Assembly (NCBI GenBank): GCA_046723385.1
Contig: JBKOUM010000124.1
Span: 1 to 39,924 of the forward strand
Source: Actinomycetota bacterium
GTDB taxonomy: Bacteria > Actinomycetota > UBA4738 > HRBIN12
Length of the DNA: 39,924 bases
Direction of reading: 5' to 3'
Shown here: positions 8,279 to 13,820 of the stretch, piece by piece
Layout of the letters: each line of letters starts with the position of its first letter
Position numbering within the stretch: position 1 is the stretch's first letter
Position numbers and translations under genes: made by a program
The notes under the pieces: model-generated
Told to the model about the DNA's origin: nothing
The model's input: only the letters and a program-made list of their open reading frames with translations
Database searches by the model: none

Positions 8279-8314
8279 ACGGACGAACGCCGGCGGCTCG
8301 GTAGGGTGAGGACC

Positions 8315-9109
8315 GTGGCCACGATCGCCCACATCTCCGACCCGCACGTCGGGTCTCCGCATTTCGTCCCGAACCTGATGAACCGCGTGATCTCCGAGCT
8401 GAACGAGCTCAGCCCCGACGTCGTCGTCGTCTCGGGCGACCTGACGACCGACGGGTTCCGACCTGAATACAAGGCCTGGCTCGCGTACGCCGACCGGATC
8501 GAGGCGCCGCTCCTCACCGTCCCGGGCAACCACGACTCACGGAACGTCGGATACCTCCACTTCGAGGATCTGATCGGCCCGCGGATGTGGGCCAAGGACG
8601 CGGGGGACGTCCGCATCGTCGGCGTGGACTCGAGCGAACCCGACCTGAACGAAGGCCAGGTCGGCCGCGTCCACTACGACTGGATCAGCGATCAGTTCGC
8701 CGGTCCGGCGGCGCTGAAGGTCTTCGTCCTGCACCACCACCTGCTCCCCATCCCCGGCACCGGCCGGGAGCGATCGACCGTGATGGACGCTGGGGACCTG
8801 CTCGAGGTGCTCGTCCACGCGGGCGTCCACGTCGTGCTGTCGGGCCACAAGCACGTGCCGTACGTCTGGCGGATCGAGGACCTCTACATCGCGAACGCCG
8901 GGACCGTGTCGTCGCTGCGGCTGCGCGGATACGGCAAGCCGTGCTACAACGTCCTCGAGTTCGACGGGGACGAGGTCTCGATCTACCGCGTGTTCCCGTT
9001 CGAAGGTGAGCGGCACCTGATGGCCCGGTTCGTGCTGTTCGAGGCCGCTCGGCATCATCGCGAGGCACCCGTCCAGCAGGTGGCGGCGACGCCCGAAACA
9101 GCCCAGTAG
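8315..9109 (+). CDS. Calcineurin-like metallophosphoesterase (CpdA/Icc-like); candidate cDPG hydrolase
   Basis: All five metal motifs present: ISDPH, SGDLT, GNHD, LHHH, GHKH. Start GTG 8315 lies 7 nt after TAGGGT (8302-8307); the ORF track starts at 8306. Confidence 0.9.
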   Translation: MATIAHISDPHVGSPHFVPNLMNRVISELNELSPDVVVVSGDLTTDGFRPEYKAWLAYADRIEAPLLTVPGNHDSRNVGYLHFEDLIGPRMWAKDAGDVRIVGVDSSEPDLNEGQVGRVHYDWISDQFAGPAALKVFVLHHHLLPIPGTGRERSTVMDAGDLLEVLVHAGVHVVLSGHKHVPYVWRIEDLYIANAGTVSSLRLRGYGKPCYNVLEFDGDEVSIYRVFPFEGERHLMARFVLFEAARHHREAPVQQVAATPETAQ

Positions 9110-9158
9110 GGACCTTCCGCCGCCCCCGGGCGCGAGAGAGAGGCAGAGGGCACACCGG

Positions 9159-10523
9159 ATGCGTGCGATCGTCCTCGTCGACGGCGAGCACTCCGTGCCG
9201 GTCACTCGGTGGGCGCTCGACATCGCGCGCGCCCGAGGGATCGAGGTCGTCGGGGGCCTGCTCGTCGGCGGCATCGAGAAGCTGCCGGCGGGCCGCCTGC
9301 CCGATCTGGGGATCCCGCTTCGAACGGCCCCGGAAGACCGGGGGGAGGCATTGCGTGCGGCGATCCTGGGATGGCGCCCCGACCTGATCCTCGACGTCTC
9401 CGACGAACCGGTGCTGGGGTACCGCGAGCGGATGGAGATCGCCTCGACCGCCCTCGCGATGGGCGTGCCGTACGAGGGGGCGGACTTCCGGTTGGACCCG
9501 CCGCCGGCGGACCCGCCGCCGGCGGGGATCCCGACGCTCGCGGTCTTCGGGACCGGCAAGCGGACGGGCAAGACGGCGATCGCGGGCGAGCTGGCGCGGC
9601 GGGCGGCCCGCCGCGACCTCTCGCCGATCGTGATCGCGATGGGTCGCGGCGGCCCGCCGACCCCGCAGGTCGCCGACGCCGGATCGGTGACCCTCGACGG
9701 CCTCCTCGCGATCGTCCAGGCGGGGGAGCACGCCGCCTCGGACTACCTGGAGGACGCCCTGACGACCGGGGTGACCACGATCGGGGCCCGGCGTGCCGGC
9801 GGCGGGCTCGCCGGCGCGCCGTTCGCGACGAACGTGTCGGAGGCCGTCGCGCTGGCGGCAGCGCGACGCCCCGGCCTCCTGCTCCTGGAAGGCAGCGGAT
9901 CGGCCCTCCCGACCGTCGCGTGGGACGCGGGGGTCCTCGTCGTCCCCGGCTCTTGCCCGCCGGAGTACGTCGCAGGGTATCTGGGTGCCTATCGGCTGTT
10001 GCGAGCCGACCTCGCGGTTGTTACCATGGCTGCGAGCCCGGTTCCCGGGTCCGAGAACCTCTCCCACCTCACCGCACACCTCCGTCGTGCATTGGGCGAT
10101 GCGCGGGTCCTGGTGACCGACTTCATCCCGGTGCCCCTCGCAGATGTGCGAGGTCGAGATGCGTTCTTCGCAACGACGGCTCCGAGCCTCGTCGCCACCC
10201 GCCAGGTGGCGCACCTCGAAGAGGCTTCCGGGGTTCGGATCGTGGCGTGGAGCGCGCGGCTCGCCGATCGGGCGGGCCTGGCGGAGGACCTGGAGGCCGC
10301 GCCCAGCTACGACGTGCTCCTCACGGAACTGAAGGCGGCGGCGGTCGATGTGGCCAGTCAGCACGCGGTGGAACGAGGCGTGGACGTCGTGTTCGTCGAC
10401 AACCGCGCGGTGATGCTCGAGGGGGCGACCGATCTCGAGGTGGCGTTCGCGGACGTGATCGAGCTCGCGATCGCCCGCGGATCGACCCGGGGCGGGGCTC
10501 CGGTCGGAAGGAACGAAGGTTGA
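9159..10523 (+). CDS. cpgS: Cyclic 2,3-diphosphoglycerate synthetase
   Basis: 454 aa. Family motifs VDGEH, DVSDEPVLGYRER, YEGADF, GTGKRTGKTA (P-loop-like), AMGRGGP, HAASDYLEDA, EGSG, TELKAAAVD. Adjacent to 2-phosphoglycerate kinase. Confidence 0.88.
   Translation: MRAIVLVDGEHSVPVTRWALDIARARGIEVVGGLLVGGIEKLPAGRLPDLGIPLRTAPEDRGEALRAAILGWRPDLILDVSDEPVLGYRERMEIASTALAMGVPYEGADFRLDPPPADPPPAGIPTLAVFGTGKRTGKTAIAGELARRAARRDLSPIVIAMGRGGPPTPQVADAGSVTLDGLLAIVQAGEHAASDYLEDALTTGVTTIGARRAGGGLAGAPFATNVSEAVALAAARRPGLLLLEGSGSALPTVAWDAGVLVVPGSCPPEYVAGYLGAYRLLRADLAVVTMAASPVPGSENLSHLTAHLRRALGDARVLVTDFIPVPLADVRGRDAFFATTAPSLVATRQVAHLEEASGVRIVAWSARLADRAGLAEDLEAAPSYDVLLTELKAAAVDVASQHAVERGVDVVFVDNRAVMLEGATDLEVAFADVIELAIARGSTRGGAPVGRNEG
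9999..10027 (+). promoter_or_regulatory. Putative internal sigma-A promoter inside cpgS (TTGCGA-17 nt-TACCAT, extended -10 TGn)
   Basis: TTGCGA at 9999-10004, 17-nt spacer ending TGT, TACCAT at 10022-10027. Local codons (TAT, TTG CGA, GTT GTT, GCT) depart from the G/C-ending codons used elsewhere. Confidence 0.5.
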
Positions 10524-11536
10524 CGGAACGCACGAGGACCGCCCAGATCGTGATCTCGGATCGCGAGCCGGGCCTGCCGTTCTCGAAGGGCTTGCTCGCG
10601 TCCCAGGTCATGGTGACGGGGCTCTCTCCCTACCGCTCCTACCAGGTGGCGGAGGAGGTCGAGATCCGGTTGCTCGAGCGGCGGCGGGCGTCGGTCACGT
10701 CGGCCGAACTCGCGGAGGTCGCGCTCGAGGTGATCGGTCAGCTCGCCGGCGACCGATACGCCACCAACTACGTCCGGTGGCGGCAGATCGAGGAGCTCGA
10801 CGTCCCGCTCGTGATCTTGATCGGGGGTGCGACGGGCGTCGGGAAATCGACGATCGCCACGCAGCTCGCGGCGCGGCTCGGGATCGTCCGGGTCGTCGCC
10901 ACGGACGCGATCCGCGAGGTCATGCGGGCGATGCTGTCGGCCGAGCTGATGCCGACCCTTCACGTGTCGTCGTTCCAAGCGGACAAGGCGCTGCGTGAGC
11001 CGCCGACCAAGACGGCCGACGCGTTGACGCTGGGGTTCCGCGAGCAGACCGCGGCGGTCTCGGTCGGGATCAACGCGTTGATCGAGCGCGCGGCTGAGGA
11101 GGGGACGAGCATCGTGATCGAGGGCGCACACGTGGTCCCGGGATTCTTCGAGACCGATGTGCACGCGGCTCGGATCCTCGCGGTTCCGTTCGTCGTCGGC
11201 GTCGACGACGAGGAACGCCATCGGTCGCACTTCGCCGCCCGCGAAGACGCGATCGCCGATCGTCCGGCCGCGCGGTACGAGGAAGGGTTCGAGGGCATCC
11301 GCAGGCTCCAGCGCTACATCAAGAGCCAGGCCCTCGCCCACGGGGTCCCGGTGATCCCCAACTACAGCTTCGACCAGTCGATCGCCGCGGTGATCGACCT
11401 GGTCATGGAACACGCGACCGATCGCGCAGGTTCTGCTCCCGCAGGTCCGTCCGCCGCGAGCACGGGCGACGGGCACGGGGACCCACGACAGACAGAAGGC
11501 CCCAGAGAGGGCCAGAGAGAAGGAATAACGGCATGA
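10520..11536 (+). CDS. pgk2: 2-phosphoglycerate kinase (archaeal type, ATP-cone-like N-terminus plus P-loop kinase)
   Basis: TTG 10520 overlaps the cpgS TGA, with purine-rich GGAAGGAACGAAGG upstream. Motifs LPFSKGLLA, LIGGATGVGKST, TDAIREVMR, PTLHVSS, SIVIEGAHVVPG. Confidence 0.88.
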   Translation: MTERTRTAQIVISDREPGLPFSKGLLASQVMVTGLSPYRSYQVAEEVEIRLLERRRASVTSAELAEVALEVIGQLAGDRYATNYVRWRQIEELDVPLVILIGGATGVGKSTIATQLAARLGIVRVVATDAIREVMRAMLSAELMPTLHVSSFQADKALREPPTKTADALTLGFREQTAAVSVGINALIERAAEEGTSIVIEGAHVVPGFFETDVHAARILAVPFVVGVDDEERHRSHFAAREDAIADRPAARYEEGFEGIRRLQRYIKSQALAHGVPVIPNYSFDQSIAAVIDLVMEHATDRAGSAPAGPSAASTGDGHGDPRQTEGPREGQREGITA

Positions 11537-12201
11537 AGCTCTTCCTCGACACGGCAAGCATCGACGAGATCCGCGAGATCAACCGCTGGGGTGTCCTCGG
11601 GGGCGTGACCACGAACCCGTCGCTCCTGGAGAAGGAAAGCTCCGACCCCGCCAAGGTCTGGCGGCAGATCCTGGATGAGGTCTCCGGTGACGTGTCCCTC
11701 GAGGTCACCGCCCCGGACGCCGATGAGATGGTGACGCAGGGCACCGCCCTCGCGCAGATGGGACCCAACGCGATCGTCAAGGTCCCGATGACACCGGACG
11801 GACTCGAGGCCGGAACCCGGCTCGTTGCTCAGGGGATCAGGATCAACGTGACCCTCGTCTTCTCACCGGCGCAAGCCATCCTGGCCGCGGAGGCCGGGGC
11901 GTACATCGTGTCGCCGTTCCTGGGGCGCGTGGACGACGTGGCGAGCGACGGGATGGCGGTATTGCGTTCGATCTGCGATATCTATGCTGTCCAGGGCTAC
12001 GACACCAAGGTCCTGGCCGCATCGCTCCGACACCCGATGCACGTGGTGGAGTCGGCGCTCGCTGGGGCCGATATCGCCACGATGCCGTACGACGTCTTCA
12101 CGAAGCTCGTGAAGCACCCGCTCACGGATCTCGGCATGGAACGGTTCCAGGCCGACTGGCAGAAACTCCAGCACCTGCTGGAGGGAGAGGCATCCAACTG
12201 A
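11533..12201 (+). CDS. tal: Transaldolase (small TalC/FSA-like family)
   Basis: FLDTA, GVTTNPSL and Schiff-base Lys in VKVP. Glu in SLEV and Phe in SPFLGR are the transaldolase rather than FSA signatures. Confidence 0.9.
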   Translation: MKLFLDTASIDEIREINRWGVLGGVTTNPSLLEKESSDPAKVWRQILDEVSGDVSLEVTAPDADEMVTQGTALAQMGPNAIVKVPMTPDGLEAGTRLVAQGIRINVTLVFSPAQAILAAEAGAYIVSPFLGRVDDVASDGMAVLRSICDIYAVQGYDTKVLAASLRHPMHVVESALAGADIATMPYDVFTKLVKHPLTDLGMERFQADWQKLQHLLEGEASN

Positions 12202-13820
12202 TGGATACGACGATGGAGCGCAGCGACCTGGAAGCGAAGCTGCTGCCTGAGCTGCAACAGATCGCCCAGACGCTCGGCGTAGAGGGAACGCAGAAGCTTC
12301 GGAAGGCGGGGCTGATCGACGCGATCGTGTCCGCCTCCGGGAACGGCGAACGGCCGTCGACACGCAACGGCGAGGACGCCGGCGGTCAGGCGACCACGAC
12401 CACGACGGCCGATGAGGAGCCGCGGCGCGACCGCGGTGGCCAGGCCGTCGAGGGAAGGGACGATCGCGAACGCGGCGGCGAGGCCGACGAGCGACGGGAC
12501 GACCGTGACCGCGGGGAGCCGCGCCGGAACGACCGCAACGACCGGCCCGCCGGACAGGGCGGCCAGCGCCCGGCGGGACAGGGCTTGAGCGACGGCGGCG
12601 AACGCGACCGGCGGCGACGCCCGTCCCGCGAGGAGCGCCGCCGGTCGCGCGAGGAGCGTCGGGTCCGCGACGAGCAGGATCGCGTGGAGGAGCTGAAGAC
12701 CGCCCCGACACGCACAGGCATCCTGGACGTCCTGCCCGAGGGCTACGGCTTCCTCCGGTGCTCGGGCTACCTGCCCGGGTCGGACGACGTCTACGTGTCG
12801 CTCTCGTACGTCCGCCGGCACCAGCTCCGGAAGGGCGACACGGTGATGGGCAAGATCCGGGAGCCCAAGAACAACGAGAAATACCCGGCGCTGCTGTCGG
12901 TGGAGTCCGTGAACGACATGGATCCCGAGAAGGCGGCCGGGCGGCCGGTCTTCGACAAGCTGACGCCGCTGTTCCCGAACGAGCGGTTCCGGCTCGAGAG
13001 CGGTCCGACGGCGATCGCCGAGCGGATCGTCGACATGGTCGCCCCGATCGGCAAGGGGCAGCGCGGCATGATCGTGGCGCCACCCAAGTCCGGGAAGACG
13101 ACGATCCTGAAGCAGATCGCGAACGGGATCATCCACTCCAATCCCGAGACGCACGTGATCGTGCTCCTCGTGGACGAGCGGCCCGAGGAGGTCACCGACT
13201 GGCAGCGGACGGTCGAGGCGGCCGAGGTGGTGTACTCGACCTTCGACAAGCCGACCGACCAGCACATCCAGGTGACCGAGCTCGTGCTGGAGCGCGCGAA
13301 GCGGATGGCGGAGACCGGCGGGGACGTCGCGATCATCCTCGATTCGCTGACGCGGCTCACGCGCGCCTACAACCTGGGGATGCCGGCGTCCGGCAAGATC
13401 CTCACGGGCGGCATCGACGCCTCGGCGCTGTACCCGCCTCGTCGCTTCTTCGGAGCGGCGCGGAACATCGAGGAGGGCGGTTCGCTCACGATCATCGCCT
13501 CGGCGCTCGTAGAGACCGGCTCCCGGATGGACGACGGGATCTTCGAGGAGTTCAAGGCGACGGGGAACATGGAGCTGCGTCTTGACCGGCAGCTCGCCGA
13601 GAAGCGGTTGTTCCCGGCGATCAACGTCGACCCTTCGGGCACGCGCAAGGAGGAGCTCCTGCTCCCGCCCGAGGAGCTCGCGCTCGTGATCCGGCTCCGG
13701 CGGGTGCTCCACGCCCTGGAACCCGGCGCCGCGCTCGAGCTGCTGATCGACAAGCTCCGGTCGACCAAGTCGAACGAGCAGTTCCTGAAGGACATCGCGA
13801 AGGCACCGACCGGGAGCTGA
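12201..13820 (+). CDS. rho: Transcription termination factor Rho with R/D/E/G-rich N-terminal insertion
   Basis: GYGFLR, LTPLFP, PIGKGQRG, PPKSGKT, DERPEEVT, FEEFKATGNMEL, SGTRKEELL. Confidence 0.98.
   Translation: MDTTMERSDLEAKLLPELQQIAQTLGVEGTQKLRKAGLIDAIVSASGNGERPSTRNGEDAGGQATTTTTADEEPRRDRGGQAVEGRDDRERGGEADERRDDRDRGEPRRNDRNDRPAGQGGQRPAGQGLSDGGERDRRRRPSREERRRSREERRVRDEQDRVEELKTAPTRTGILDVLPEGYGFLRCSGYLPGSDDVYVSLSYVRRHQLRKGDTVMGKIREPKNNEKYPALLSVESVNDMDPEKAAGRPVFDKLTPLFPNERFRLESGPTAIAERIVDMVAPIGKGQRGMIVAPPKSGKTTILKQIANGIIHSNPETHVIVLLVDERPEEVTDWQRTVEAAEVVYSTFDKPTDQHIQVTELVLERAKRMAETGGDVAIILDSLTRLTRAYNLGMPASGKILTGGIDASALYPPRRFFGAARNIEEGGSLTIIASALVETGSRMDDGIFEEFKATGNMELRLDRQLAEKRLFPAINVDPSGTRKEELLLPPEELALVIRLRRVLHALEPGAALELLIDKLRSTKSNEQFLKDIAKAPTGS

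Follow-up and report, generated by a model that had tools for sequence, protein, structure and literature searches.

Enzymatic breakdown of cyclic 2,3-diphosphoglycerate (cDPG) was reportedly described by Sastry et al. in 1992 for Methanothermobacter thermautotrophicus. The cDPG hydrolase of M. thermautotrophicus is described as membrane-bound and inhibited by K+ and phosphate, cDPG as a carbon and phosphate store, and the pathway as consisting of a kinase and a synthetase (PMC1224877). All class I methanogens are reported to have the 2-phosphoglycerate kinase, but only some the synthetase (PMC2686161), and cDPG is still described as confined to hyperthermophilic methanogens (PMC10690619). Synthetase alone is sufficient for one-step enzymatic cDPG synthesis (bioRxiv 10.1101/2025.02.21.639460). 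Here, we analyzed a 39,924-nt contig from an Actinomycetota bacterium (GenBank JBKOUM010000124.1, hereafter the window), in which an intact metallophosphoesterase (MPE) gene lies directly ahead of cpgS, which encodes a homolog of cDPG synthetase, and pgk2, which encodes a 2-phosphoglycerate-kinase-like protein. Linkage, co-occurrence across the phylum, and clade structure make it probable that the MPE is functionally tied to the cDPG genes. A preliminary description of this DNA had stated that no gene is firmly assigned to cDPG hydrolysis; our literature search likewise found none, and since most subscription journals lay outside the search this does not constitute proof. Within the same limits, no publication was found that pairs "cDPG" with "metallophosphoesterase", and the search returned nothing relevant on cDPG in Rubrobacter or other actinobacteria.

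Two characterized enzymes are the nearest solved structures to the MPE. Rv0805, the class III cyclic-nucleotide phosphodiesterase of Mycobacterium tuberculosis (Protein Data Bank, PDB, 2HY1 and 3IB7), is the best fold match (E = 4e-17, TM ~0.7–0.8), and its metal-ligand motifs GD, GNHD, HH, and GH.H align with those of the MPE. The two proteins nonetheless share only 22–23% identity, Rv0805 has HHPPIP and unrelated residues where the MPE has HHHLLPIPGTGRER, and it has no cpgS context. GpdQ, the glycerophosphodiesterase of Enterobacter aerogenes (PDB 2ZO9, 3D03, and 2DXL), is a top match by both sequence and fold and a promiscuous binuclear diesterase of comparable size. It differs in its identity (21–22%) and in lacking the third histidine and the TGRER loop, having HHPP.P followed by unrelated residues instead. 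GpdQ is a member of a glycerophosphodiester uptake operon and not of a cDPG unit. The methanogen hydrolase activity is the closest described system by reaction, as conversion of cDPG to 2,3-diphosphoglycerate (2,3-DPG) is what we propose for the MPE, but that activity is described as membrane-bound (PMC1224877), whereas the MPE is predicted to be soluble. New in this analysis are a leaderless-type promoter box, the clade structure of the family, co-occurrence without linkage, the family-wide distribution of the TGRER loop, a phosphate-regulon context in Methanobacteriaceae-like loci, and the interpretation of apparent MPE–cpgS fusions as artifacts.

Linkage and co-occurrence with the cDPG genes

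The MPE gene is directly upstream of cpgS in 33 of the 34 loci fetched from the window's order, or 30 of 31 once three unpublished genomes (G017, G029, and G037) are set aside. Those three are included in the wider count of 41 genomes from this order, of which 39 carry cpgS and 39 carry an MPE at E ≤1e-3. The exception, G030, has only a 48%-identical MPE copy located elsewhere. Outside the order, a scan of one genome per species returned more than 600 matching places, and we analyzed the best 80, which are 57–92% identical and include loci labeled Gaiellales, Thermoleophilia, Geothermincola, and Euzebyaceae. In 78 of these best 80, cpgS starts no more than 400 nt downstream of the MPE; the other two are a contig ending 86 nt after the MPE and a locus, L096, with 1.65 kb of downstream sequence and no cpgS. 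Bacterial metagenome loci (n = 71) gave a similar picture, with cpgS within 400 nt downstream in 54 and 1.6–3.7 kb away in six. The remaining 11 comprise seven with less than 300 nt downstream, three belonging to the sister clade described below, and one, L137, with 2.98 kb and no cpgS.

This arrangement is found in different surroundings. Flanking genes vary by lineage, with thrB and rho bordering the unit in the window and other genes in Gaiellales-labeled loci. A bacterium of 29% GC carries the same MPE–cpgS–pgk2 trio (L156, 9971–13137) with overlapping MPE and cpgS open reading frames (ORFs), amid hisD, an aminotransferase, a pterin-binding enzyme, an ABC ATPase, xseA, and rsmH. The gene order is MPE–pgk2–cpgS in locus L193, and a third arrangement tying the MPE family to the cDPG pathway occurs in genome G267 (contig C35, 5556–7257), where a sister-clade-like MPE (52% identical) stands head to head with pgk2 on opposite strands, ~95 nt apart. 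Within the trio, the MPE is the most conserved protein: its identity to the window protein is higher than that of cpgS in all 78 loci compared (by a median of 12.8 points) and higher than that of pgk2 in 56 of 71.

For co-occurrence, we sampled 301 genomes evenly across the phylum, all with a completeness of 85% or more, and scored an MPE match as strong at E ≤1e-50 and cpgS as present at E ≤1e-10. A strong MPE and cpgS were found together in 173 genomes, a strong MPE alone in one, cpgS alone in four, and neither in 123. Eleven unpublished genomes all fall in the first class, and without them the counts are 162, 1, 4, and 123 of 290. Three of the cpgS-only genomes are affected by assembly or gene state: the contig ends right after cpgS in G229, cpgS lies near a contig end in G304, and cpgS is partial in G211. 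Only one of the 124 cpgS-negative genomes has a strong MPE. The preliminary description had put forward co-occurrence and clustering with cpgS and pgk2 as a check, and for bacteria both are borne out, by linkage in the 78 of 80 and 54 of 71 loci above and, within this phylum, by 173 genomes with both genes against five discordant ones. The pgk2 gene tracks cpgS almost exactly (175 and 177 of 301 genomes, respectively), a breadth to be set against the description of cDPG as methanogen-confined (PMC10690619).

Co-occurrence extends to genomes in which the genes are apart. In family f9 and part of family f16, the sole MPE copy is 47–48% identical and unlinked to cpgS, with distances of 600 kb in G313 and 293 kb in G092 and placement on separate contigs in G101 and G116; all 21 f9 genomes nevertheless hold both genes. 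Co-absence is likewise seen within families. In f36, five genomes carry both genes, whereas G085 and G127 are without cpgS and match the MPE only weakly; one f1 genome (G331) is without both genes, and each gene is present in three of four f13 genomes, a pattern that points to joint loss or gain.

Fusion of the two genes was considered as "Rosetta stone" evidence and rejected. A search for longer proteins listed 80, of which 37 (within P0531–P0584) combine MPE and cpgS parts according to precomputed Pfam domains; all 20 of the listed proteins that we compared hold both parts. All 37 are singletons, located on one contig or with no contig recorded; among the 20 compared, the MPE match in most cases breaks off 20–60 residues short of its normal end, with the cpgS part often cut as well. 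We read them as frameshift or gene-calling artifacts of error-prone assemblies, probably frameshifts in long-read assemblies. Separately, a second set of ORFs joins the pterin-binding domain PF00809 to the MPE.

Fold, family tree, and archaeal relatives

The MPE belongs to the calcineurin-like metallophosphoesterase superfamily (PF00149) by profile, motifs, and fold. Numbered on the 267-residue ORF, all metal-ligand motifs are present (D12-x-H14, G44-D45, G74-N75-H76-D77, H143-H144-H145, and G180-H181-K182-H183), and alignments of 28 and 46 relatives show little or no variation at these positions or at G153, R154, E155, and R156 of the TGRER loop. The intact binuclear enzyme with a distinctive segment that the preliminary description had recognized is therefore confirmed, as every motif it named and HHHLLPIPGTGRER itself occur in the translation. 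The Pfam Metallophos profile matches residues 6–185 (E = 1.8e-19), its 71.4 bits clearing the cut-off of 21.5. An AlphaFold2 model has a mean pLDDT of 92.7, with low scores for the last 25 residues; the TGRER loop is modeled without regular secondary structure, and residues 151–160 average 83. Foldseek comparison of the model with the PDB ranked Rv0805 and GpdQ first (21–23% identity), followed by purple acid phosphatases. There were 388 fold matches at E ≤0.001, and the 46 of them listed are presumably all metallophosphoesterase-fold proteins, judging by their names. A sequence search of solved structures was led by the same two enzymes (GpdQ, 6e-10; Rv0805, 1.6e-9). Seven NCBIfam families were matched, LpxG among the weak ones, and none reached its cut-off, the CpdA equivalog NF008359 scoring 40.9 against 225 bits. 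No hydrophobic segment was found in the MPE, as the maximum 19-residue Kyte–Doolittle value is 1.28 and no stretch reaches 1.6. A Protein Atlas look-up gave generic "metallophosphoesterase" clusters only, commonest in Actinomycetota.

A whole-library search returned 5668 proteins at E ≤1e-3 and only 189 representative clusters at 1e-30. In a tree of 88 rows, non-redundant at 80% identity, the cpgS-linked proteins group in a single clade (41 rows, support 100/99) that contains the window protein together with those of L156 and L144. Its sister clade (19 rows, 96/75) is composed of the unlinked but co-occurring actinobacterial copies and L193, and the two clades group with support of 100/96. Placed outside both are WOR-3-named rows, single-domain archaeal proteins of DPANN and other types, a tight Methanobacteriaceae-like clade (100/100), and two-domain proteins of ~500 residues that form a clade of their own (97/96); many of the outer branches are long, and their placement is unsure. 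The two-domain proteins (P0126–P0161), named from Thermococcus, Methanomicrobia, Methanofastidiosa, Asgard archaea, and one Acidobacteria record, have a complete TGRER phosphoesterase as their first half and a degenerate second half without metal motifs. Archaeal names across the family include Methanobrevibacter, Methanobacterium, Altiarchaeales, Diapherotrites, Micrarchaeia, Wukongarchaeota, Thermococcus, Methanomicrobia, Methanofastidiosa, and Heimdall-, Hod-, Hermod-, and Promethearchaeota. Unlinked sister-clade copies have no context conserved across families, with plsC and gpsA as neighbors in f9 and HlyIII or LigD elsewhere. In two loci of the window's order, a protein of ~145–150 residues with a cyclic-nucleotide (cNMP)-binding domain is encoded divergently beside such a copy (L037, 8280–8717; L038, 2875–3327).

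The preliminary description had asked whether a subfamily with the motif HHH..P.P.TGRER goes together with cpgS and pgk2. The motif does not single out a cDPG-specific subfamily, as the loop is family-wide and occurs in Thermococcus-, Asgard-, and DPANN-named proteins. R154, E155, and R156 are 80–100% conserved in every group, so the loop is a family trait and no mark of cDPG specificity. K182, R205, and R207 are conserved in most groups, with His in place of R207 in half of the Methanobacteriaceae-like rows and Lys in place of R205 in the two-domain proteins. By comparison, R27, R121, R228, and P231-F232 are at least 95% conserved in the linked clade only.

Archaeal members have a different genomic setting. 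Nine low-GC, Methanobacteriaceae-like loci encode proteins 54–70% identical to one from a Methanobacterium-named record. The preliminary description's suggestion of clustering with cpgS and pgk2 did not hold for these loci; their members adjoin a PhoU-type regulator and PstS instead. In all six loci with enough flank, the member adjoins a multi-pass membrane protein and a PhoU-domain helix-turn-helix regulator, with the gene order rearranged in two of the six and a PstS-like phosphate-binding protein nearby in three. The membrane neighbor is 216 residues long (L121, 8125–10801, with the same genes in L122–L125 and L128). Methanogen names seen among archaeal members are Methanobrevibacter and Methanobacterium; Methanothermobacter was not among the names seen. 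This phosphate-gene context fits cDPG as a phosphate reserve with a phosphate-inhibited hydrolase (PMC1224877).

Candidate reactions

The preliminary description had read the MPE as an enzyme acting on cDPG or 2,3-DPG. The tie to cpgS and pgk2 stands, through linkage, co-occurrence, and clade membership, but the bond that is cleaved is not readable from sequence. Opening of the cDPG ring is the reaction we rank first, as a tentative assignment and at somewhat short of an even chance, because exactly such an orphan activity exists, the superfamily cleaves phosphoanhydrides, the archaeal relatives lie in phosphate-starvation neighborhoods, and a reserve needs a controlled exit. Phosphoanhydride-cleaving members of the superfamily include the LpxG/LpxH-type diphosphatases. 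In the mechanism we propose, the MPE would be a soluble, cytoplasmic, binuclear-metal phosphohydrolase dedicated to the cDPG pathway and encoded by the first gene of an MPE–cpgS–pgk2 unit, with a leaderless-type promoter of its own. The cyclic pyrophosphate of cDPG would be hydrolyzed to 2,3-DPG by a hydroxide that bridges the two metals, the mechanism of other metallophosphoesterases, while the polyanion would be held by the conserved basic residues R154 and R156 of the TGRER loop, K182, R205, and R207. The clade-specific R27, R121, and R228 may add to this binding. The enzymes that make and degrade cDPG would then be produced at the same time, with control of the pool exerted post-translationally (by phosphate, for instance), making cDPG a mobilizable phosphate and carbon reserve and more than a static solute. 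The ppk–ppx (polyphosphate) and glg (glycogen) operons offer an analogy, in that a synthetic enzyme and a hydrolase are co-transcribed with the pool under post-translational control; their proteins and compounds are unrelated to those discussed here, and for the cDPG unit such regulation is a proposal.

The same linkage and co-occurrence would fit a 2,3-DPG phosphatase equally well, since cpgS and pgk2 are almost perfectly co-distributed. Such an enzyme, the main rival, would yield 2- or 3-phosphoglycerate and phosphate. It would carry out the second breakdown step or act as a valve limiting 2,3-DPG, which is the kinase product and the synthetase substrate. Many metallophosphoesterases are monoesterases, and the MPE is divergent beside pgk2 in G267. 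The wider distribution of the kinase than of the synthetase among class I methanogens (PMC2686161) also suits the Methanobrevibacter and Methanobacterium members. We nevertheless regard this reading as unlikely. G128, the one genome in which a pgk2-like gene occurs without cpgS, matches the MPE only weakly (3.2e-15); pgk2 is beside the MPE in no archaeal locus examined; and Rv0805 and GpdQ, the nearest enzymes in structure, cleave diesters. Those two structures, in turn, favor a role as a conventional Icc/CpdA-type phosphodiesterase, with cyclic nucleotides, 2',3'-cyclic phosphates, or glycerophosphodiesters as substrates, in which case the position ahead of cpgS would reflect shared regulation or inherited gene order and no shared substrate. 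Relatives are named CpdA or Icc by their sources, a cNMP-binding-domain protein is encoded divergently next to the sister-clade copies of L037 and L038, archaeal clades outside a cDPG context share the catalytic and loop residues, and the archaeal gene lies in a phosphate-scavenging neighborhood, as many generic phosphoesterases do; the exceptions to linkage and co-occurrence named in this section help sustain this rival. Its chances seem to us as low as those of the phosphatase, given an identity of just 21–23% to Rv0805 and GpdQ and a CpdA equivalog score of 40.9 bits where 225 are needed. Moreover, the linkage outlasts changes in flanks, gene order, and GC content, and co-occurrence holds where the genes are unlinked, a strong member being found in one of 124 cpgS-negative genomes. 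Finally, the MPE could serve synthesis or act as a partner, for example by clearing a wrongly phosphorylated glycerate or a by-product that inhibits (metabolite repair), or by binding and regulating the synthetase. Its first position in the unit, its conservation as the highest of the three, and the scarcity of cpgS-bearing genomes without it would agree with such a role. We consider it very unlikely, as no known step of cDPG synthesis requires a hydrolase, the published pathway is made up of kinase and synthetase (PMC1224877), the synthetase alone suffices for one-step synthesis (bioRxiv 10.1101/2025.02.21.639460), and the retention of all catalytic residues argues against a purely structural role.

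Several observations weigh against the MPE as a cDPG ring-opening enzyme. The cpgS-positive and cpgS-negative genomes are phylogenetically clustered, and because the genomes are thus related, the two-by-two table is inflated and overstates the number of independent events. G059 (95% complete) seems a genuine exception, with cpgS and pgk2 but only a weak MPE match; in G153 (98% complete), a strong MPE is accompanied by neither cpgS nor pgk2; and L096 and L137 run on past the MPE without reaching cpgS. The TGRER motif and the other basic residues are kept in Thermococcus-, Asgard-, and DPANN-named clades, from organisms that are not known to make cDPG or to have cpgS. Basic residues shared with such clades suggest that the ancestral substrate of the family was probably something other than cDPG. 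A paralogue-type MPE copy beside a cyclic-nucleotide-binding protein was found in two loci, and neither cpgS nor pgk2 appears around any of the nine archaeal members, with up to 10 kb inspected on each flank. A hydrolase made alongside its synthetase also needs a control step, which is assumed here. Furthermore, the reported archaeal hydrolase is membrane-bound (PMC1224877), whereas no hydrophobic segment was found in the MPE or in its archaeal relatives, in which the 19-residue Kyte–Doolittle maximum is 0.76–0.93. The MPE may still bind the membrane peripherally; as a speculation, the membrane protein encoded beside the archaeal members could account for the membrane-bound activity.

Were ring opening by the MPE correct, assignment of the hydrolase would complete the cDPG pathway and explain how the pool is controlled, and a co-expressed hydrolase would be unwanted in biotechnological cDPG production. 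A named candidate gene makes the open question of cDPG breakdown directly testable; the protein is small and predicted to be soluble, and cDPG can now be obtained enzymatically (bioRxiv 10.1101/2025.02.21.639460). A broader proposal is that TGRER metallophosphoesterases are the missing breakdown enzymes for cDPG and 2,3-DPG phosphate stores in both domains, hard-wired to the synthesis genes in Actinomycetota and placed under the phosphate-starvation regulon in Methanobacteriaceae, with cDPG a widespread, dynamic reserve of soil bacteria. We hold this to be doubtful as a whole; if it were true, cDPG would be a phosphate and energy reserve and no archaeal heat-protection curiosity.

Gene start, promoter-like box, and neighboring genes

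The longest reading of the intact MPE ORF spans 8306–9109 on the forward strand (267 residues, GTG start), and the window genome holds a single MPE copy. We take the start as the GTG at 8315 because this start codon is conserved and preceded by a box at leaderless-type spacing. In aligned upstream regions, the codon corresponding to 8315 is GTG, ATG, or TTG in 76 of 107 distinct orthologous loci, and several orthologs have an in-frame stop directly upstream of it. Counting boxes that begin 12–15 nt (and end 6–9 nt) ahead of the start codon, we found a TANNNT hexamer at the equivalent distance in 60 of the 72 distinct loci whose MPE is at least 64% identical and in two of the 35 more divergent loci; no other upstream position has it in more than five loci. 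This conservation exceeds chance expectation. Leaderless actinobacterial transcripts typically show a conserved −10 box at such spacing. The MPE gene has its own conserved promoter-like box of leaderless type, and the claim in the preliminary description of a separate −10 element (TAGGGT) is accepted. A sigma-70 consensus scan gave no promoter-like sites, a scan that does not model TANNNT-only promoters.

The preliminary description had also placed the MPE 49 nt upstream of cpgS on the same strand, and the coordinates agree, as the MPE stop codon ends at 9109 and the cpgS ATG is at 9159 (Table 1). A terminator scan found no terminator-like site on the forward strand between 7300 and 14200, and co-transcription of MPE and cpgS is therefore likely. 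Two soil RNA libraries contain short contigs 96–97% alike to parts of cpgS (10127–10463 and 10141–10354) and pgk2 (10959–11114). These stem from relatives, none bridges the MPE–cpgS junction, and DNA carry-over is possible, so they are no evidence on co-transcription.

Table 1. Positions of the MPE gene, its sequence elements, and the genes downstream of it in the window
Feature	Position	Strand	Detail
TAGGGT, −10-like TANNNT hexamer	8302..8307	+	7 nt ahead of GTG 8315; proposed leaderless-transcript promoter
MPE coding sequence	8315..9109	+	264 aa, 29.3 kDa, pI 5.6; GTG start preferred over 8306
HHHLLPIPGTGRER, metal-ligand histidines then TGRER loop	8732..8773	+	residues 143–156
Spacer between MPE and cpgS	9110..9158	+	49 nt, purine-rich ahead of ATG
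cpgS, cDPG synthetase homolog	9159..10523	+	454 aa
pgk2, 2-phosphoglycerate-kinase-like	10520..11536	+	4-nt overlap with cpgS
fsa/talC-type fructose-6-phosphate aldolase or transaldolase	11533..12201	+	4-nt overlap with pgk2

The product of cpgS matches PDB 8ORU/8ORK at 5e-83 (8ORU is the cDPG synthetase of M. fervidus; residues 3–438) and 9SXB at 1.1e-80. Its close relatives bear the source name cDPG synthetase and carry the precomputed Pfam domain PF27272. The pgk2 product matches NCBIfam NF003259 at 1.7e-88 with 296.9 bits, which is under the equivalog cut-off of 343. Downstream, the fsa/talC-type gene scores 265.7 bits against TIGR00875 (cut-off 245.95). It follows pgk2 in the window's order and is missing from the Gaiellales- and Thermoleophilia-labeled loci, and is thus a lineage-specific companion outside the core MPE–cpgS–pgk2 trio.

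The window as a whole is a high-GC actinobacterial core region that runs through argS, hom, thrC, thrB, the four inserted genes, rho, rpmE, prfA, glyA, and atp genes, and its relatives are soil metagenome-assembled genomes labeled Actinomycetota. The rho gene (12201–13820) begins on the last base of the fsa stop codon. Its product bears a long insertion rich in Arg, Asp, and Glu near the N-terminus; such N-terminal insertions are frequent in actinobacterial Rho proteins.

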